A stretch of 64,000 bases of DNA. Source: Chloroflexota bacterium (GTDB taxonomy: Bacteria > Chloroflexota > Limnocylindria > P2-11E). The notes under the pieces are model-generated. The model had not been told where the DNA came from. It ran no database searches and saw only the letters and a program-made list of their open reading frames with translations. The translations under genes and the position numbers were made by a program. The stretch lies in contig JACQAT010000020.1 in assembly GCA_016194865.1 (NCBI GenBank), positions 12,902 to 76,901 of the forward strand, written 5' to 3'. Position 1 is the stretch's first letter, and the number at the start of each line of letters is the position of its first letter. Below are positions 8,295-62,043 of this stretch, piece by piece.

Positions 8295-10203
8295 GTGTCA
8301 CCACCGGCTCCGCGTGCGCGCCCGAGAGGACGTTCGAGAACGCGGCGACGAGCTCGTCCTCGCTGAAGGGGCGGCCGTCGTACTTCAGGATCCGCTCTTC
8401 GATCTTCACGCCGGTCTGCTCACGGAGGACGGAGCCGAGCTGGCCCGAGTAGTTCTCCTCGACGAGGCACAGCCTCTTCGCCTTCCGGAGGATCGCCTCG
8501 ACGTCCTCGGCGGGGAAGGGGCGCATCAGCCGGCACTGGAGGAAGCCGATCTTCCTGCCCCGCTCGGCGAGCACCCGGATCGCGTCGAGGATCGTGCCCT
8601 TCGGTGATCCCCAGCTCACGACCGTCAGCTCGGCGTCCTCCGGTCCGTAATAGCCGTACTGCTGATCCTTCGGGATCGCCTTCGCGATGAGGTCGAGCTT
8701 TCCCATGCGCTTCTCCATCATCGCCATGCGCATCTCGACGCCCTCGGTGATGTGCCCGTCGGGGTCGTGCTCGTCGGTCGTGGCCCAGAAGCGTCCGCCG
8801 GCGATGCCGGGACGGCTGCGAGGCGAGATGCCGTCCTTCGTCAGCGCGAAGCGCAGGTACTCGTGCACGTCGCCCTTCCCGTTGCCGTTCCCGTCGCGCC
8901 GGACGAGATCGTTGCCCTTCGCCTCGACCGCGGTCCACTCGCTCCCCGTGAAGTTCTCGCCGCGGTCGATCTTGTCGTACTTCAGCTCGAGCCTGTCGAT
9001 CGTCGTGTAGATGGCGGCGAGCTTCTTGTCCGATAGGACGATGACCGGGAGCTGGTAGCGCTCGGCCCAGTTGAAGGCGGAGAACACGTCCTGATACGAC
9101 TCACGCAGGTCACCGGGCGCGGTCACGATGTGCGGGAAGTCGCCCTGCGCGGGGTGGAGCGCGAAGAGCAGGTCGCCCTGCTCGTTGCGCGTCGGCAGGC
9201 CGGTCGACGGGCCGCCTCGCTGGTACAGCACGAGCACCGGTCCCGGTGCCTCGGTGATCGACGCGAAGCCGATGCCCTCGACCATCAGCGCGAAGCCGGG
9301 GCCGCTCGTCGCGGTCGCCGAGCGCACGCCCATGTGCGCCGCGCCGACGGCCATGTTGATCGAGGAGATCTCGTCCTCGCACTGCACGACGAGGATGTTG
9401 TGGTCGCGCTGCTGGCGCTCGAGGAAGACGGACTCGTCGGTGGCGGGCGAGATGGGGTAGTAGGTCTGGAAGTGACAGCCCGCCTTGAGCTTCGCGATGG
9501 CCATGATCTCGTAGCCCTTGGCGAGGATGCGCGCCTTCGGCTCGTGATGTGGCGTCAGCTTGTAGGGGAACGCCTCTGAGTCGAAGTGCTCCTTCACGTA
9601 GTCGAACGCGAGCCGGGCGACCCGCACGTTGAGCTGCCCGACCTCGCTGCGCTTTCCCTTGAACTGGCCCAGGATCACCTCGGACACGAGCTGGAGCGGA
9701 TAGTCGCAGAGCGCGAGCGACGCGCCGAGGGCGACGGTGTTCTTGTAGACCTCGTAGCGCCGGGCCTGGTCGCCCTTGCCGACCTCTTCGAGCGCCTTCT
9801 TGATCGTCTCCATGAAGGGCACCGCGTAGAAGTGGATGTCGTCGCGACCGGTGTGCGCCGGGTCGAATCCGATGTCGCTGTCGTAGATCACCCCACCGCC
9901 CTGCGAGACCTCGTGCAGGTGTCCGTAGTGGGTCGGCCAGCGGCGGTGGTCGCCGTCGCCGGCGAGCGTCTCGTGGTCGAGCGCGACCAGGATGTCGGTC
10001 ATCTCGCGGTAGGAGCGCACGTCCTCGTCATCGACACGCACCCGATAAAAGGAGTGCTTGCCCATGATGTTCGAGTGGTACTCGATATTGGCGTAGACGC
10101 GCAGCCCTGCCCGGCTGCACGACTTCGCGAATACCTCGGCGGAGGCGTTAATCCCGCTCCCCTGGGGTCCACCGATCATCCAGGTGAGCCGATTCTTCTG
10201 CAA
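8284..10203 (-). CDS. korA: 2-oxoacid:ferredoxin/acceptor oxidoreductase, alpha subunit (fused gamma-alpha type)
   Basis: 639 aa with a TTG start. The N-terminal GGPQGSGINASAE gamma-like domain is followed by a pyrimidine-binding alpha domain (YPISPATD). Overlaps korB by 11 nt. Confidence 0.9.
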   Translation of the reverse strand: MQKNRLTWMIGGPQGSGINASAEVFAKSCSRAGLRVYANIEYHSNIMGKHSFYRVRVDDEDVRSYREMTDILVALDHETLAGDGDHRRWPTHYGHLHEVSQGGGVIYDSDIGFDPAHTGRDDIHFYAVPFMETIKKALEEVGKGDQARRYEVYKNTVALGASLALCDYPLQLVSEVILGQFKGKRSEVGQLNVRVARLAFDYVKEHFDSEAFPYKLTPHHEPKARILAKGYEIMAIAKLKAGCHFQTYYPISPATDESVFLERQQRDHNILVVQCEDEISSINMAVGAAHMGVRSATATSGPGFALMVEGIGFASITEAPGPVLVLYQRGGPSTGLPTRNEQGDLLFALHPAQGDFPHIVTAPGDLRESYQDVFSAFNWAERYQLPVIVLSDKKLAAIYTTIDRLELKYDKIDRGENFTGSEWTAVEAKGNDLVRRDGNGNGKGDVHEYLRFALTKDGISPRSRPGIAGGRFWATTDEHDPDGHITEGVEMRMAMMEKRMGKLDLIAKAIPKDQQYGYYGPEDAELTVVSWGSPKGTILDAIRVLAERGRKIGFLQCRLMRPFPAEDVEAILRKAKRLCLVEENYSGQLGSVLREQTGVKIEERILKYDGRPFSEDELVAAFSNVLSGAHAEPVVTRVR

Positions 10204-50029: not shown

Positions 50030-50346
50030 CCTTCGGGCTGCGACGCGTCGCGGTCTCCGGCGGAAGCATGGAGCCCGTCCTGCGGGACGGTGACTGGCTG
50101 GTGGTCGCCGCGCTGCGGCGGCCGCCACGCGCCGGGGAGCTCGTGGTGCTGGACGACCCGCTCGCGCCAGGACGCCTCCTGGTGAAGCGCGTGCGGGACG
50201 TCACGACCTCGGGGGTGCGCGTCGGCAGCGATGCGAGCGAGCACGCCGGCCATCTGGCCGAGCGTGGCGTCATTCCGCTGAGCCTGGTCCACGGACGGCC
50301 CGTGCTGCGCTACGCGCCGCTCGCCCGCGTCGGCATTCCCCGTTGA
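50011..50346 (+). CDS. sodX: NiSOD maturation protease SodX (S26/S24 signal-peptidase-like); start non-canonical or unresolved
   Basis: FGLRRVAVSGGSMEPVLRDGDWLVV...LLVKRV corresponds to SodX FGLAEVTGPSMVPTL. The only ATG/GTG/TTG upstream of the catalytic Ser is ATG 49795, which would overlap about half of sodN out of frame. CTG 50011 or ATA 50026 fit better. Confidence 0.8.
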   Translation: MGDQEIAFGLRRVAVSGGSMEPVLRDGDWLVVAALRRPPRAGELVVLDDPLAPGRLLVKRVRDVTTSGVRVGSDASEHAGHLAERGVIPLSLVHGRPVLRYAPLARVGIPR

Positions 50347-54403: not shown

Positions 54404-56467
54404 TTGAGCGACCTTCTCGAGCTTCTCGAGCAGCGGACATCCGCGCGCGAGTCGGGTGAGATCCCGGCCGCGCTCGGGCCGATGCTCGAGGAGCTCAGCC
54501 GCGCGTTCGCGTGCGACCGCGCGCTGATCGCGCTGTACCACCCGGACCGGCAGCTTCTCTCGGGCAGCCTCGGACGCAATATCCCGCGCGACTACGCGGA
54601 AGCGCTCGAGATCCCCCTCAGCGACGCGACCGACCCCAGCGTCACGGCCTTCCGGAGCGGCGTCCCGCAGCGCGTCGAGGACGCCGCGACCGACCCACGG
54701 ATCCGCCAGCACATCCGGGAGGTGCTCGTCGAGCTTGCGCTCGAGCGATTCCTGGTCGCGCCGCTCCTCGGCGCGTCCGAGGCCGTCGGCGTCGTGCTGC
54801 TCTCGCGAGCAGCTCCGTTCAGCGAGAGTGACGTCGACGCGCTCATGCCGCTCACCAATCGCGCCGGCGCCGAGCTCGCCCGCGCGCGCGACGTCGAGCG
54901 GCTCCGCGACACGAGCGAATCCACAGCGATCCAGCAGGGCTGGCTCTGGCTCATGATCAACTCCGTCGCCGACCCGGTGCTCGTGTCGGACGAGCAGAAC
55001 GAGATCATCCTGCAGAACAGGCGCGCCGAGCTGCTCTTCCGCGTCAACCCGGAGGACAGCCCCGGCCGCAAGCACGCGGTCACGATGAACAACTTCCTGT
55101 TCACGGCGGCGCTGTCCACGTGGAATCTGCAGCGCGGCGAACGATCGCCAACGCGCGAGCTGACGCTCGTCGATCCGACCGAGGGCTCGGAGCTCAGCTT
55201 CGAGGTCATCGCGCAGCCGGCGACGAACTACCGGCTCGGCGCGGGCGGCCGCGGCATGGTCGCGGTGCTGAAGAACGTCACCGACCTTCGCAACGTGACC
55301 GAGGAGCTCAGCCGCAACGTCCTCCGTCTCCAGTCCGCGGACCAGGAGATCCGGACCGAGCGCGACCGCCTCGATCTCATCCTGCGGAGCGTGCCGAACC
55401 CGATCATCGTCATCGACAACGACAACCAGATCATCACGACCAACGAGGCGGCGCAGCGCGTCTTCGGCGGTGAGAAGCGGCCGCTGGCCGAAGGCCGCGC
55501 CGCGGAGACCGCGCTGCGCAACAACGCGAAGTTCACGTCGTTCCTCGCGCAGCTTCGCCTCGATCCGGCGACGCGGAAGGCCGGCGAGCTCGCGCTCATC
55601 GATCCGACCACTTCGGAGGCCCTCGAGATGGTCGTGACGGCGACGGAGATCCAGGATCAGCTGGGAGCCGTCGTCGCCGTGGTCGCGGTGCTCCAGGATG
55701 TCGGCCGGCTCCGCGAGCTCGAGCGCCGCCGCCTCGAGCAGGCGCTCTTCGAATCCGAGAAGCTCGCGGCGACCGGCCGTCTCGCCGCGTCGATCGCGCA
55801 CGAGATCAACAACCCGCTCGAGGCGATCCAGAACTCGCTGTATCTGCTGGTGAACAAGGTCCCGAACGACGACCCGAACTACAAGTTCCTCGAGATCGCG
55901 ATGAAAGAGACCCAGCGGATGTCGCGGATCCTGCGACAGATGCTCGGGTTCTACCGGCCGGCCGCGTCGATGGGGCCCACGGATGTCAACGCGCTCATCG
56001 ATGAGGCGGAGGCGCTCGTCGTGAAGCGCCTGCGGGATCGCAAGATCGGACTCCGCAAGTCGCTGGACGGCGCGCTGCCGCCGATCCAGGCTTCGGCCGA
56101 TCAGCTCAAGCAGGTGATCCTCAACCTGCTCCTCAACGCCGCCGAGGCGATGGGGGAGGGCGGCACGATCGACCTCGAGACACGCGTCTACCGCGACGCG
56201 AGGGCTCCGTTCCTTCGCGCCGAAGCCGTGCAGATCCTGATCAGGGACACGGGCGCGGGCATCGACGAGGAGCACATGCCGCACATCTTCGAGCCCTTCT
56301 TCTCCACGAAGGGCGAGCGCGGCACCGGCCTCGGGCTCTGGGTGTCGTCCGGCATCGTGCAGGCGCATGGCGGCACGCTCCAGGTGCGCAGCAGGCCCGG
56401 CATCGGGACCACGTTCAGCATCACCCTGCCGATCGCGGGGCCGCCGAGCGATGCCGATGGCCGGTGA
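54404..56467 (+). CDS. Cytoplasmic sensor histidine kinase (GAF-PAS-PAS-HisKA-HATPase)
   Basis: 687 aa with a TTG start and no TM segment. H-box SIAHEINNPL, N-box LLLNAAEAM, and G-boxes DTGAGI and GTGLGL. Confidence 0.85.
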   Translation: MSDLLELLEQRTSARESGEIPAALGPMLEELSRAFACDRALIALYHPDRQLLSGSLGRNIPRDYAEALEIPLSDATDPSVTAFRSGVPQRVEDAATDPRIRQHIREVLVELALERFLVAPLLGASEAVGVVLLSRAAPFSESDVDALMPLTNRAGAELARARDVERLRDTSESTAIQQGWLWLMINSVADPVLVSDEQNEIILQNRRAELLFRVNPEDSPGRKHAVTMNNFLFTAALSTWNLQRGERSPTRELTLVDPTEGSELSFEVIAQPATNYRLGAGGRGMVAVLKNVTDLRNVTEELSRNVLRLQSADQEIRTERDRLDLILRSVPNPIIVIDNDNQIITTNEAAQRVFGGEKRPLAEGRAAETALRNNAKFTSFLAQLRLDPATRKAGELALIDPTTSEALEMVVTATEIQDQLGAVVAVVAVLQDVGRLRELERRRLEQALFESEKLAATGRLAASIAHEINNPLEAIQNSLYLLVNKVPNDDPNYKFLEIAMKETQRMSRILRQMLGFYRPAASMGPTDVNALIDEAEALVVKRLRDRKIGLRKSLDGALPPIQASADQLKQVILNLLLNAAEAMGEGGTIDLETRVYRDARAPFLRAEAVQILIRDTGAGIDEEHMPHIFEPFFSTKGERGTGLGLWVSSGIVQAHGGTLQVRSRPGIGTTFSITLPIAGPPSDADGR

Positions 56468-57740
56468 CCGGATCCTCGTCGTCGACGACGAGGAGAGCGT
56501 CGCGGTGACCATGCAGGCCATCCTCGAAATGGACGGTTACGACGTCATGACCGCGCTCAGCGGGTCCGAGGCGGGGGAGCTCATCCGCGGCGGCGGCGAG
56601 TTCGACCTTGTGCTCACGGACCTTCGCCTCGAGGATGCCGACGGGCTGCAGATCATCCAGGAGGTGCGCAAACGCAGCCCCGACACGATCTCGATCATCC
56701 TGACGGGCTACGCCTCGCTCGACTCGGCGGTGAACGCGCTGCGCGAGGGCGCGTACGACTATCTCGTCAAGCCCTGCGATGTCGAGGAGCTGCGCGCCAC
56801 GGTCTCGCGCGCGCTGGAGCGGCGGCGGTTGGGACAGCAGCTTCGCCAGCGTCTCGGCGAGCTCGAGCAAGCGAACGAGACGATCAGCGCGCTCAACGCG
56901 GACCTCCAGCGGCGCGTCGACGCGGCCACCGCCGAGCTGCGCGGGAACCTCGAGCGTCTCACGGAGCTCGACCGATTGAAGTCACAGTTCATGTCGATCG
57001 CGTCGCACGAGCTCAAGACGCCTGTCACCGCGATGTCCGGCTTCCTGCAGATCGCGCTCCGCCGGATGCGCAAGCGCCTCGACGCCGGCGGCCGCCCCGG
57101 CGACGACTGGCAGGGGGAGCAGAAGGCCATCGCCGGGCAGCTCGAGGTCGTGCACCGCCAGACCGAGAAGCTCGCGCGCCTGATCGACGAGCTCCTCGAC
57201 GTCTCCCGCATCCAGAGCGGGCGCGTCGAGTTCCATCTCCAGGAGATGGACGTCACCGCGCTCGTCGCCGAGGTCGTGGAGCGCATGCAGACGGCCAATC
57301 CAGCCCGCGAGATCCGCCTCGCCAAGAGCACCGCGCTGCCGATCACCGCCGATCGCGACCACCTCGAGCAGGTGCTCAACAACCTCATCGCCAACGCGAT
57401 CAAGTACTCGCCCGACGGCGGGCCGGTCGAGGTCGCGGTGCGCAAGGCCGACGGCGGCGCCGCGGTGTCGGTCACGGATCACGGCATCGGCATCCCCGCG
57501 GAGGAGCTCGAGAAGATCTTCGGCGTGTTCTATCGCTCGCCCGACCGCCGTGCGCGCGACGTCGGTGGGATGGGGTTGGGCCTCTACATCAGCAAAGAGA
57601 TCGTCGATCGCCATGGTGGCGACCTGATCGTCGAGAGCACGCCCGGCAAAGGTTCGACGTTCACGATGAAGCTGCCGCGCAGGGCGATCACCGATCACGC
57701 GCAGCTCACGTCACCGGAGCCCGCCGCCGCCGCGCGATAG
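56451..57740 (+). CDS. Hybrid response-regulator receiver / histidine kinase (REC-HisKA-HATPase)
   Basis: Overlaps the upstream kinase by 17 nt. REC domain (ILVVDDEE..DLVLTDLRL..KP) followed by H-box SIASHELKTP, N-box NAIKYSP and DHGIGIP..GMGLGL. Confidence 0.85.
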   Translation: MPMAGDRILVVDDEESVAVTMQAILEMDGYDVMTALSGSEAGELIRGGGEFDLVLTDLRLEDADGLQIIQEVRKRSPDTISIILTGYASLDSAVNALREGAYDYLVKPCDVEELRATVSRALERRRLGQQLRQRLGELEQANETISALNADLQRRVDAATAELRGNLERLTELDRLKSQFMSIASHELKTPVTAMSGFLQIALRRMRKRLDAGGRPGDDWQGEQKAIAGQLEVVHRQTEKLARLIDELLDVSRIQSGRVEFHLQEMDVTALVAEVVERMQTANPAREIRLAKSTALPITADRDHLEQVLNNLIANAIKYSPDGGPVEVAVRKADGGAAVSVTDHGIGIPAEELEKIFGVFYRSPDRRARDVGGMGLGLYISKEIVDRHGGDLIVESTPGKGSTFTMKLPRRAITDHAQLTSPEPAAAAR

Positions 57741-57803
57741 CCGATGCCCCGGGCCCCTCGACGCGCTTGGCAACGGAGCTGTAGTTTCCTAGGTTACTAG
57801 CTG

Positions 57804-57877
57804 TCGGGGTGGAGGGATTTGAACCCTCAACCTCCTGAACCCCATTCAGGCACGCTGCCAGGTTGCGCCACACCCCG
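57804..57877 (-). tRNA. tRNA-Pro (anticodon GGG)
   Basis: The reverse complement folds as a cloverleaf. Acceptor CGGGGTG/CACCCCG; D arm GCGC..GCGT; anticodon stem CCTGA/TCAGG with loop AT-GGG-GT; T arm GAGGG-TTCAAAT-CCCTC. Discriminator is A and CCA is not encoded. Confidence 0.9.
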
Positions 57878-57889
57878 ATCTCGCTCTGT

Positions 57890-58834
57890 TCAGTCAGTGT
57901 ATCGGCGGCGGATGTCCTTGAGTGGCCGGGGTGCGATGCCGCGCGCAGCTCGTTTGCGCCGGTCACGGATCCGCGCGCACGCGTTGCAGTGGACGCGCGT
58001 CCGGCCCGTCGACGTAGTTGTCCGTCGGTCGTAGACGTGCGCACGCTTACAACGCGTTCGGTCGCCCTTCAGTCGCTCCTGGGAGGCGAAGGTGACGATC
58101 GCGGCGCGGGCCTGTTCGCGCTTCACGCTGCCCAGCCAAGGACCAACGATCGCGAGAACGCGTTCGACGGCCGGCAGGCCCTCGGCCACCCATTTGAAGT
58201 CGTCAGGCTGGCCGTGTCGCTCGATCCGTCCTACACCGATCACTTTGTGGAGTCGGATCAGCACGGCCGCCGGCGTACCGACATCGCCGTGCTGATCGGC
58301 GGAGACACGGAGTCGATGCCAGGGTTGCCCGCCGACTCGTGGCTTGCTTCGGGCGAGACCGAAGCAGCCCTCGCCGTCCAGAAAACCAGCGGCCCACGCC
58401 CGAACGAGCTTGGCTTCATCAGTCGTTGATCCTGTTCGCACTGGAACAGCCAAGCGGCCAGCGCGCACTCCGCCCCGACGCGACGCGAATGTGCCGGAAT
58501 CTAATTGAGCCTGCAGGGCGCGCATGGCCGCAGCCGCCTGCGCTCGTTTCACCGTGCCGAGCCAGCGCCAGAGCAGGGCGACGCACGCCCGGGTCTGCTC
58601 AAAGCCGCGATCACGCCAGCCGTACGTCCCATCGCCATATGGCCCGGTGATGCTGCCCATGCCGAGCATCGCGGCCTGGAACCGATGGAGAACCTCAGGG
58701 ACCGCGCCATCGCCATGCTGTCGTATCTGCATTCCGATACGTAGATATCCGGGGCGTCCTGCTGCGCGCAGCACGTACGTCGATCCTTCCCCATCGAAGA
58801 GGCCCGCGGCCCACGCAAGTGCCTCAAGGTCCAT
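57890..58834 (-). mobile_element. Free-standing double-motif LAGLIDADG homing-endonuclease-like gene
   Basis: 314 aa. Two LAGLIDADG motifs (LAWAAGLFDGEGS and RAWAAGFLDGEGCF) lie about 135 aa apart. The basic C-terminal tail has a C-x2-H...HC-x2-C pattern. Third-position GC is visibly lower than in flanking genes. Ends 12 nt before tRNA-Pro on the same strand. Confidence 0.75.
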
Positions 58835-60041: not shown

Positions 60042-61313
60042 ATGACCAAGTCAGCTCACCTCCTGGCGCTCGCGTGCCTGACGCTCGCGCTCCTCGCTTG
60101 GCCGCTTCGCGCATCGAGCGACGCCGCGAGCAACATCGCGATCGATCTCCTCGCCCAGCAGAACGGTCTGCGCTACGCGATCGGCGCGCCGACGATCACC
60201 TCGGACCCACGCCTCATCGTCGCGGCACAGAATCACGCCGACTACTCGGCGCTCAATCACACCGGCGGTCACTACGAGACCGCGGGTCAGCCCGGGTACA
60301 CCGGCTATGCCCCGCGCGATCGCGTCGCCGCGGCGGGCTGGTCGCCGTCGTTCGTCAGCGAGGTCGCAGCCGGCTACAGCGGCGCGTCGAACGCGCTCAA
60401 CGAGCTGTGGCACGCGCCGTATCACCGGCTCGGCATGATGCATCCGAACAACGTCTCGTCCGGCTGGGGCAACTCGACGGCCGGCGGCGGATCCGCCACG
60501 GTGGGCGACTTCGTCTACGACTTCTCGGTCCGCCCGGTCGACTTCGTCCGCTCGCCGGCCGCGAGCCAGACCGGCATCCCGGCCTCATGGAGCGGCAACG
60601 AGTCGCCGAGCCCGCTGCCCTCGGGGATCCGCGGCCCGGTCGGCTATCCGATCATGGTCGTCTACTCGGCGGGTCAGAACGTCACGATGCGAGCGGCCGA
60701 GATCGTCGCGCCGAACGGCTCGCGCGTCCCGATCTACTACGCGCCGCAGCAGTTCGAGTACGACTACCAGGTCATCATTCCGCAGCAGCCGCTGGCCGCG
60801 GGCACCACGTACCACGTGCGCTTCGACATCAACGTCAACAGCCGCATGGTCACGAACGAGTGGGACTTCACGACGGCGGGCGCGGGCGGCAGCTCGTCGA
60901 CACCGCCGGCGTACAAGCCCCCTGTGCCGGCCGACGCGGGCTACCACAGCCGCTGGCTCTCCGAGTCACCCTTCCCGACGCTGAAGGCCGGCGAGGTCAG
61001 CGCGCCGCTGACGATCTCGTTCACGAACACCGGCAGCAAGTCATGGGTCCGTGGCGTCGAGGGCCAGCAGGCGAACCTCGGCGTCAACGGTGACAACCGG
61101 CAGTGGGCGCCGCTCGGCATCGGCTGGCCGACCCCCGATCGTGTCGCCATCCAGAAGGAAGCGATCGTCGCACCGGGTCAGGTCGGGTCGTTCACCTTCC
61201 AGGTGCGCGCCCCCTCCGCTCCGGGGACGTACGCGATCGATCTGCGCGGGGTCATCGACGGCACCGTGTGGCTCGAGGACGAAGGCGTCTTCCTCTACAT
61301 CACCGTCCGCTAA
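60042..61313 (+). CDS. Secreted CAP/SCP domain protein with two C-terminal Ig-like (NBR1-type) modules
   Basis: 423 aa with a signal peptide (MTKSAHLLALACLTLALLAWPLRASS). CAP core: LLAQQNGLRYAIG...ELWHAPYHRLGMM. The C-terminus APGQVGSFTFQVRAPSAPGTYAIDLRGVIDGTVWLEDEG is paralogous to 34095..34979. Confidence 0.75.
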   Translation: MTKSAHLLALACLTLALLAWPLRASSDAASNIAIDLLAQQNGLRYAIGAPTITSDPRLIVAAQNHADYSALNHTGGHYETAGQPGYTGYAPRDRVAAAGWSPSFVSEVAAGYSGASNALNELWHAPYHRLGMMHPNNVSSGWGNSTAGGGSATVGDFVYDFSVRPVDFVRSPAASQTGIPASWSGNESPSPLPSGIRGPVGYPIMVVYSAGQNVTMRAAEIVAPNGSRVPIYYAPQQFEYDYQVIIPQQPLAAGTTYHVRFDINVNSRMVTNEWDFTTAGAGGSSSTPPAYKPPVPADAGYHSRWLSESPFPTLKAGEVSAPLTISFTNTGSKSWVRGVEGQQANLGVNGDNRQWAPLGIGWPTPDRVAIQKEAIVAPGQVGSFTFQVRAPSAPGTYAIDLRGVIDGTVWLEDEGVFLYITVR

Positions 61314-61513
61314 CCACTGAAGACGACCTCGAACAGCGCCGCGCACTTCGGGCACTTGACCGACGCGGCATAGGGCGGATCCGGTGGGACATCGAGGTGT
61401 TCGCGCGTGACGAAGCGCGGACCGACGAGCGTCCCGCACGCCGGGCACGCGACCTTGTAGGCGAGGAAGTCGCGCCGCGGCGCGTCGATCCGGATCGCGG
61501 TGCCACCCGACAT
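61310..61513 (-). CDS. Small zinc-ribbon protein
   Basis: 67 aa from ATG 61513. Two CxxC pairs (CPAC...CPKC). The longer track ORF start lies inside the neighbouring gene. Confidence 0.55.
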   Translation of the reverse strand: MSGGTAIRIDAPRRDFLAYKVACPACGTLVGPRFVTREHLDVPPDPPYAASVKCPKCAALFEVVFSG

Positions 61514-61519
61514 TGCCCG

Positions 61520-61526
61520 TAGTCTA
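61520..61526. promoter_or_regulatory. Overlapping divergent -10-like hexamers TAGTCT (+) and TAGACT (-)
   Basis: The palindromic TAGTCTA sits in a 20-nt spacer. It is 8 nt upstream of the ahpE-like ATG 61534 and 7 nt upstream of the zinc-ribbon ATG 61513. Confidence 0.45.
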
Positions 61527-61533
61527 GGCAGCC

Positions 61534-62043
61534 ATGGACGAGCCGCGTCCGAAGACGCGCAACAAGATCGCGACCGAGAGCAAGACGCTGAAGGTCGGTG
61601 ACCAGGCACCCACCTTCGAGCTGCGCGCGCACGATGGCCGACAGGTCTCGCTCGCGGCGCTCCGCGGCCAGCGGGTCGTGCTCGCGTTCATGGCCTTCGC
61701 CTTCAGCGGCACCTGAAACCAAGAGGTCCCCGCGCTGAACCTCCTGCAGGAGCGTTCCAGCGCGGGCAAGGCCCAGGTCGTGGGCATCACCTGTGACTCG
61801 GTGTACGCGCTGAAAGCATGGGCCGACGACCTCGGCGGCGTGAGCTTTCCGCTCTGCGCGGACTTCTGGCCGCACGGCGCCGTCTCGAGCGCGTACGGCG
61901 TGTTGAACACGGAGATCGGACGGCCCGATCGCTCGATCTTCGTCATCGATCGGGAGGGCGTCATCCGCTACATCGACCTGCACCAGCTTCGTGAGGTCCC
62001 GGATGAGGCCGAGATCGCCGAGGAGCTCGAGAAGCTCGCTTAG
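61534..62043 (+). CDS. ahpE: AhpE-type 1-Cys peroxiredoxin with an in-frame TGA at the peroxidatic position (candidate selenoprotein, or a pseudogene)
   Basis: Track ORFs 61534..61716 and 61780..62043 share one frame. The joined product VGDQAPTFELR..VVLAFMAFAFSGT-[TGA]-NQEVPAL..FPLCADFWPHGAVSSAYGV..RSIFVIDREGVIRY aligns along its length with M. tuberculosis AhpE as I recall it (FFPLAFTGICQGEL; FPLLSDFWPHGAVSQAYGV). TGA 61714-61716 falls exactly on the Cp codon. Confidence 0.7.
61729..61766 (+). promoter_or_regulatory. SECIS-like stem-loop downstream of the in-frame TGA
   Basis: CCCGCGCTG-AAC-CTCC-[TGCA]-GGAG-c-GTT-c-CAGCGCGGG gives 9+3+4 bp with two single-C bulges. The apical loop starts 28 nt after the TGA and has G at loop position 2. 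Confidence 0.5.

Follow-up and report, generated by a model that had tools for sequence, protein, structure and literature searches.

Selenocysteine-containing peroxiredoxins (Prx) form a selenoprotein family that was defined by comparative genomics and is marked by the active site T/SxxU (Zhang et al. 2006, PMC1794560; 2026 review PMC13188914), comprising in 2006 twelve members and five independent conversions of cysteine (Cys) to selenocysteine (Sec) (PMC1794560, Table 1). PrxU of Eubacterium acidaminophilum, through which the 2026 review counts the family as verified by experiment, is its experimental prototype (Sohling et al. 2001, cited in PMC13188914), and within the Chloroflexota the Dehalococcoidia are rich in selenoproteins (PMC13326102). 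The gene treated here lies at positions 61534-62043 of the forward strand in a 64,000-nucleotide stretch of contig JACQAT010000020.1 (Chloroflexota bacterium, assembly GCA_016194865.1), the whole of which was analysed and is called the window below. Very probably the region encodes one intact 169-residue AhpE-like peroxiredoxin with selenocysteine as the peroxidatic residue, and is thus a functional selenoprotein gene.

The predicted protein of the window shares with the T/SxxU family the AhpC/TSA fold (PF00578), Sec in place of the peroxidatic Cys, the existence of Cys homologues and a hairpin of the selenocysteine insertion sequence (SECIS) type right after the UGA. It differs from that family in belonging to an AhpE-like branch with the motif AxxxSxxU, from which the proline is missing. 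The hosts of this branch are Limnocylindria, Dormibacterota and Eremiobacterota, whereas the known hosts of Sec-peroxiredoxins are Clostridia and Deltaproteobacteria. The window protein also falls outside the PrxU equivalog NF040737 (55 bits against a cut-off of 270) and the Prx-SUH equivalog NF045827 (41.8 bits against 298), and no NCBIfam model reached its cut-off with it. The Prx-like thiol:disulfide oxidoreductase selenoproteins (UxxC/UxxU; PMC13188914) belong to the same PF00578 superfamily, but they have Sec in a thioredoxin-like UxxC motif, whereas the window protein, with a predicted Sec at the peroxidatic position of an S/TxxU site and the catalytic Arg kept, is regarded as a true peroxiredoxin.

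The kind of protein, a Sec-peroxiredoxin, is already known, and the AhpE-like member outside the NCBI equivalogs is the new part. Listings in BSepDB aside, no description of a Sec-containing AhpE-type enzyme was found in the literature searched, nor did that literature yield any selenium use or selenoproteins in Limnocylindria, Dormibacterota or Eremiobacterota. The original prediction, made from the letters of the window alone, had called such an enzyme unusual in an actinobacterium-like genome. This held in so far as none was described in the literature searched, but Sec-peroxiredoxins are an established family, the AhpE-like Sec branch turned out to be widespread, and the host is not actinobacterial.

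AhpE of Mycobacterium tuberculosis (Rv2238c) is a 1-Cys peroxiredoxin reduced by mycoredoxin-1 and mycothiol, the latter of which would not be expected in a Chloroflexota bacterium. The window protein resembles it in size, in the motifs FPL(L/C)SDFWPHG and RxxFVID and in the peroxidatic position. It differs in having a predicted Sec for Cys, Ala for the motif Pro, two extra cysteines (C87 and C108) and an N-terminal extension of about 18 residues (KIATESKTLKVGD) that is conserved in its clade. Given C87 and C108, the window protein, unlike AhpE, may not be a 1-Cys enzyme.

Reading frame and peroxiredoxin identity

The frame opening with ATG at 61534 and closing with TAG at 62041-62043 is interrupted, according to the sequence and its translation, solely by the TGA at 61714-61716. 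No other stops or frameshifts were present in the translation of 61534-62043, which includes 169 codons followed by TAG, the TGA encoding residue 61. The list of open reading frames (ORFs) accordingly divides the gene into an ORF at 61534-61716 (60 amino acids, aa) and a second ORF in the identical frame ending at 62043, so the same-frame pair parted only by a TGA, from which the original prediction started, was found as described.

Profile and structure-sequence comparisons were made on the product with Cys placed at the TGA codon. The product matched the Pfam family AhpC-TSA (PF00578) over the entire model (1-124 of 124, E 1.2e-32), its score of 112.9 bits passing the family cut-off of 26. 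The closest solved structure was M. tuberculosis AhpE (PDB 1xvw, 4x1u, 1xxu), aligned over residues 14-159 with an E value of ~9e-27. The seven highest places of the PDB sequence ranking were all taken by AhpE entries (E 9e-27 to 2e-25), the Prx1-type proteins coming next at 3e-15 or weaker, and the window protein is nearer to AhpE than to Prx1/AhpC, Prx6, Tpx, PrxQ/BCP or Prx5. Also the named database homologues carry the titles mycoredoxin-dependent peroxiredoxin or AhpE. In the alignment codon 61 stands opposite the peroxidatic Cys of AhpE (AFSGT-[TGA]-NQE versus AFTGI-C-QGE), and the TGA at 61714-61716 is read here as a putative selenocysteine (U61) in an S-G-T-U site at the peroxidatic position. 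The likeness to AhpE had been part of the original prediction, together with the exact coincidence of the TGA with the peroxidatic Cys, and the alignment bore out both.

The interrupted frame could also be taken as two separate small proteins, namely an N-terminal peptide of 60 aa and a product of 87 aa that starts from GTG at 61780. Gene calls are indeed split in this manner, as in the locus L083, and database fragments are titled redoxin domain-containing protein. However, the two pieces together make up a single thioredoxin-fold domain and aligned continuously with AhpE, codons 62-82, which separate the TGA from the internal GTG, are kept as protein sequence in the relatives, and the called start of the C-terminal fragment varies from one relative to another, which makes a pair of independent products extremely unlikely. 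The nearest database proteins (65-74% identity) were 92-113 residues long and covered the C-terminal 51-62% of the query only. As all of them are C-terminal fragments, gene calling in many genomes has broken off at this very TGA. The public records contain either such a C-terminal fragment of 92-113 aa under the redoxin title or two fragments, and this fragmentary annotation results from the lack of an NCBIfam model capturing the family of the window protein.

TGA is at the same time an ordinary stop codon in the window, the 39 crude gene calls ending in TGA in 22 cases, in TAG in 16 and in TAA in one. A genome-wide reassignment of TGA is therefore excluded, as the original prediction had maintained. 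A non-canonical decoding of the codon could take the form of genome-wide reassignment to Trp or Gly, against which the same count speaks, or of insertion of Cys by a tRNA-Sec-like tRNA. The homologues have Cys at this position, and insertion of Cys would thus also yield an active enzyme, but the residue aligned in the homologues is never Trp or Gly, and the TGA is accompanied by a SECIS-type hairpin, the hallmark of SelB-dependent decoding. Decoding by a non-canonical route is on these grounds most improbable.

The TGA codon and the downstream hairpin in related loci

Related DNA was read in frame at 80 loci from species-representative genomes and at 80 metagenome loci, of which two genome loci were unreadable at the codon, leaving 158 loci scored. 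The codon was TGA in 33 and TGC/TGT in 45 of the genome loci, and TGA in 41 and TGC/TGT in 39 of the metagenome loci. Altogether, codon 61 corresponded to TGA in 74 and to TGC/TGT in 84 loci, and to TAA or TAG in none. The comparison of orthologues proposed with the original prediction thus gave TGA or a Cys codon only, and TGA was present in all 25 closest relatives (L001-L007 and L084-L101, with 59-73% protein identity). In L001-L006, the six with long flanks, the TGA-bearing gene occupied the same syntenic slot. The neighbour-joining tree placed the window inside a clade with TGA in 35 of its 35 members, and the distribution of Sec and Cys over the whole tree needs six state changes.

Pairwise ratios of nonsynonymous to synonymous substitution (dN/dS) between the window and its relatives were ~0.25-0.6 on either side of the TGA. 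The ratio remaining below one past the TGA, the downstream part is therefore translated. That the TGA would be a sequencing or assembly error at 61716 is hardly credible: the independent Logan assembly of run SRR12113409 was identical across the region, including the TGA (the gene calls there being 60 aa and 67 aa), and the same TGA was found in 74 other loci.

Some Cys forms were placed within Sec groups. The locus L010 (~9998-10063; Eremiobacterota metagenome-assembled genome (MAG) CAVTCS01) encodes Cys as the peroxidatic residue and is nested among Sec forms, and it keeps a hairpin of -33 kcal/mol (z -3.2) that passes the rules for bacterial SECIS (bSECIS) elements. This looks like a reversion from Sec to Cys of recent date that has left a fossil SECIS. 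Two further Cys forms, L019 and L155, also lie within Sec clades. In one Cys homologue, P0003 (151 aa, from a 1052-nt JGI contig), the N-terminal half resembles actinobacterial AhpE (FTGVCQGELC) and the C-terminal half, judged by eye, is closely like the Limnocylindria-type Sec clade. This sequence could be recombinant or a chimeric assembly.

Downstream of the TGA a SECIS-like stem-loop was detected at 61725-61773 (+), assessed by minimum-free-energy folding, shuffling and the published bSECIS constraints. The fold reproduced exactly the stem-loop of the original prediction as its core (61729-61766), formed by 16 bp in helices of 9, 3 and 4 bp with two 1-nt bulges, and four extra pairs beneath a 3-nt internal loop stretch the structure to its full length. 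The apical loop UGCA (61745-61748) is situated 28 nt past the UGA and has G in the second place. The constraints published for bacterial SECIS elements are an apical loop of 3-9 nt with G within its first two positions, an upper stem of 4-16 bp, a spacing of 16-37 nt from the UGA to the loop, and an energy of <= -7.5 kcal/mol (PMC13188914, Fig. 2 legend). The window hairpin conforms to every one of them, having a loop of 4 nt with G second, a spacing of 28 nt, an upper stem of 4 bp and an energy of -33 kcal/mol, and the geometry originally claimed for it was therefore correct. The same rules were passed by 21 of the 32 TGA loci tested and by 5 of the 45 Cys loci.

With an energy of -33.8 kcal/mol in the minimum-free-energy fold, the hairpin was more stable than dinucleotide shuffles of the sequence (z -3.7), none of 200 shuffles folding as well. 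Compared with shuffles preserving the protein and the codon usage, in which synonymous codons were permuted within the gene, it reached a z of -3.17, and none of 150 shuffles was equally stable. When the 60 nt past the codon were compared over the related loci, dinucleotide shuffles gave a mean z of -2.45 for 34 TGA loci versus 0.01 for 45 Cys loci (Mann-Whitney p 2e-10), and synonymous-codon shuffles of all loci gave -1.56 for TGA (n=73) versus -0.21 for Cys (n=84; p 7e-11). The Anaerolineae-type hairpins produced a clean consensus, 5 of whose 14 pairs had compensatory changes, and each member of the window's clade folds a hairpin centred ~30 nt past the UGA. The integrity of the gene, the conservation of the TGA, the association between hairpin and TGA and the selection on both halves are demonstrated by these analyses, and they support the proposal of a candidate selenoprotein.

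Several other results weigh against this interpretation. The hairpin of the closest clade is not conserved by alignment column: RNAalifold found poor consensus structures for the codon-registered Limnocylindria-type and Eremiobacterota hairpins because the stems change register between sequences, and for this reason the case for the hairpin is built on the tests of individual sequences together with the Anaerolineae consensus. The stability of the closest-clade hairpins above synonymous shuffles was also modest (mean z -0.74, Wilcoxon p 3e-4), much of the pairing being already encoded by a GC content that is high and a peptide, APALNALQQRF, that is conserved. The window hairpin is among the two strongest of the clade, its z being equalled only by that of L088 (-3.18). 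The expectation that the hairpin would track the TGA among orthologues thus stood across all loci, but did not hold as a column consensus within the closest clade.

The genes selA, selB and selD and tRNA-Sec were not found in the 64-kb window or in the ~1.5 Mb of related-locus flanks. ARAGORN and Rfam (gathering thresholds) gave only tRNA-Pro in the window, ARAGORN found no tRNA-Sec in 34 Sec loci or later in all fetched loci, and tblastn with E. coli SelA, SelB and SelD against the window and 160 loci produced one weak GTPase match only. Such an empty search is what can be expected from a small sample of a several-megabase genome and is not evidence of absence. Neither was a second selenoprotein candidate found in 267 kb of Limnocylindria-type DNA: when this DNA and the window were scanned for coding-looking frames interrupted by TGA, the Prx alone stood out, and the other matches were neighbouring genes in the same frame. 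The only other TGA-interrupted coding-looking frame of the window, at 50344 (+), appears to be two adjacent same-frame genes (a stop, then MGIVTCVRCSQ...) rather than a candidate selenoprotein. Finally, the active site of the window protein has Ala at position 54 and so lacks the Pro of the PxxxT/SxxC(U) motif.

The missing Pro and the failure to find Sec machinery genes in the window would both fit a pseudogene, originated either by a recent TGC-to-TGA nonsense mutation that killed a Cys-peroxiredoxin or by a recent loss of Sec decoding from the genome, leaving the ancestral gene dead. A recent nonsense mutation, the alternative named in the original prediction, is however contradicted by the TGA being ancestral, present in 25/25 closest relatives and in 35/35 members of the clade, and by purifying selection on both halves, including the part downstream of the TGA. 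In addition, the 169 codons contain no other stop or frameshift, the loss of Pro is clade-wide with no lesion private to this copy, and the position of the window hairpin (z -3.17) among the two strongest of its clade is the opposite of what decay predicts. A pseudogene is, in the light of these results, very unlikely.

Active-site residues and proposed catalysis

The active-site motif of the intact Sec-peroxiredoxin is encoded by the codons A54-F-A-F-S58 (61693-61707, +), which, according to alignment column counts, give AxxxSxxU in place of the canonical PxxxTxxC/U. The motif PxxxTxxU has been called highly conserved in the 2026 review (PMC13188914). The Pro was retained in 45/45 Cys loci and 23/32 Sec loci. 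The window, L001-L007 and L011 have A, S, G or V in its place, and L084-L101 lack it as well. The Thr or Ser at -3 from the peroxidatic residue and the catalytic Arg are both present, as S58 and R133. Ser occupied motif position 58 in 7/32 Sec loci, and R133 (codon 61930-61932, +), the conserved catalytic arginine of peroxiredoxins, was invariant in 77/77 aligned loci and likewise in a second alignment.

The column counts also distinguished two cysteines specific to the clade. The first, Cys87 (codon 61792-61794, +; GITCDS), was present in 9/32 Sec loci (including the window and L001-L007), in all of L084-L101 and in 1/45 Cys loci, and its motif was GI[STL]CDS in all clade members read. The second, Cys108 (codon 61855-61857, +; PLCADFW), was found in 7/32 Sec loci (the window and L001-L006) and in 0/45 Cys loci, occurring as PLCSDFW in most members of the window's clade. 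On the basis of the alignment to AhpE and of the fold, C87 presumably replaces a Val at the end of AhpE strand beta-4 and C108 a Leu in beta-5, and both of these strands are taken to adjoin the active-site strand. Because the replaced positions sit in strands beside the active-site strand, C87 is put forward, as a hypothesis only, as the putative resolving residue.

Following the established bacterial Sec pathway, the hairpin starting 11-15 nt past the UGA would act as a bacterial SECIS element in translation and recruit SelB with Sec-tRNA(Sec), upon which the UGA at 61714-61716 would be decoded as Sec and the chain would continue. From the sequence comparisons we infer both the insertion of Sec at codon 61 and the presence of Sec machinery in the host. 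As in the known chemistry of peroxiredoxins, the U61 selenolate would be positioned by Ser58 and Arg133 and attack the hydroperoxide, forming a selenenic acid to be recycled by a thiol partner. For the window's clade the recycling might be guessed to include a selenenylsulfide with Cys87, perhaps with a relay to Cys108, after which a protein of the glutaredoxin or thioredoxin type would possibly reduce the Se-S bond.

The grounds for this guess on recycling are the glutaredoxin domain fused to the Anaerolineae homologues and the use of mycoredoxin by M. tuberculosis AhpE. The Anaerolineae-type proteins (L020, L024, L025, L043 and the Cys form L019) have a C-terminal extension of ~100 residues with a CxxC motif, and the tail of L024 past the Prx domain matches Pfam Glutaredoxin (PF00462) with an E value of 4.4e-12. 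The fusion of Prx and glutaredoxin hints at a glutaredoxin-type reductant for the whole branch, the window's clade itself being without the fusion.

A more far-reaching interpretation would be that the Limnocylindria/Dormibacterota branch represents a remodelled selenoperoxiredoxin, with a proline-less AxxxSxxU site and a Cys87/Cys108 relay, working by a Se-S atypical 2-Cys mechanism undescribed for any Prx and kept in aerobic soil bacteria with almost no other selenoproteins. In this full form the interpretation is rather unlikely, and a variant of it with the UGA decoded by a non-canonical route is even less likely.

Host lineage, distribution and significance

The host had originally been thought to have an actinobacterium-like genome, which proved mistaken, as the window is collinear with MAGs of Candidatus Limnocylindria, a class of the phylum Chloroflexota. 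The collinear part at 58.9-64 kb shows 70-78% nucleotide identity with Candidatus Limnocylindria MAG contigs and with older records named "Chloroflexi bacterium". The conserved order includes a uracil-DNA glycosylase, a helix-turn-helix protein, a CAP-domain protein, a small zinc-ribbon protein, the Sec-Prx, a DUF6789-like protein and a protein-isoaspartate methyltransferase, of which the DUF6789-like neighbour is a weak match (E 0.002, under the Pfam cut-off). The tRNA-Pro(GGG) upstream of the conserved block is also present in 4/6 relatives.

Besides this class, the TGA form occurs in Dormibacterota, Eremiobacterota/Vulcanimicrobiota and many Anaerolineae, including the isolate Ornatilinea apprima, and also in Sulfobacillus harzensis, another Bacillota MAG, Acidobacteria and one betaproteobacterial MAG. 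Most of the Cys forms come from Deltaproteobacteria.

The zinc-ribbon protein (67 aa, CPAC...CPKC) is encoded divergently at 61313-61513 (-), its start codon lying 20 nt from the ATG of the Sec-Prx. Neither a sigma-70-like promoter nor a Shine-Dalgarno-like sequence was evident in this spacer (61514-61533), and the promoter and terminator scan was empty. Leaderless or internally promoted transcripts are possible at the Sec-Prx locus. In L002, L003, L004 and L006 the nucleotide match continued unbroken from the zinc-ribbon ORF into the Prx gene. Farther upstream, the tRNA-Pro(GGG) at 57803-57877 (-) adjoins a 314-aa ORF at 57890-58834 (-) with a borderline match to a LAGLIDADG endonuclease (E 1.2e-4, 23.4 bits versus a cut-off of 23.1). 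An ordinary-looking hybrid sensor kinase at 56367-57740 (+), in which a receiver domain is followed by HisKA and HATPase_c, is located upstream of the tRNA-Pro.

As Sec-peroxiredoxins have been known since 2001, general concepts remain unchanged. The gene is routinely mis-annotated, and a dedicated profile would mend the dozens of loci found here and probably many more database entries. Natural pairs of Sec and Cys forms are available in the family, among them apparent reversions from Sec to Cys such as L010, and its proline-less active site would be useful for learning what Sec adds to peroxiredoxin catalysis. Soil bacteria commonly carry the AhpE-like Sec branch, and its discovery here implies that Limnocylindria, Dormibacterota and Eremiobacterota, lineages of soil and freshwater, decode selenocysteine.

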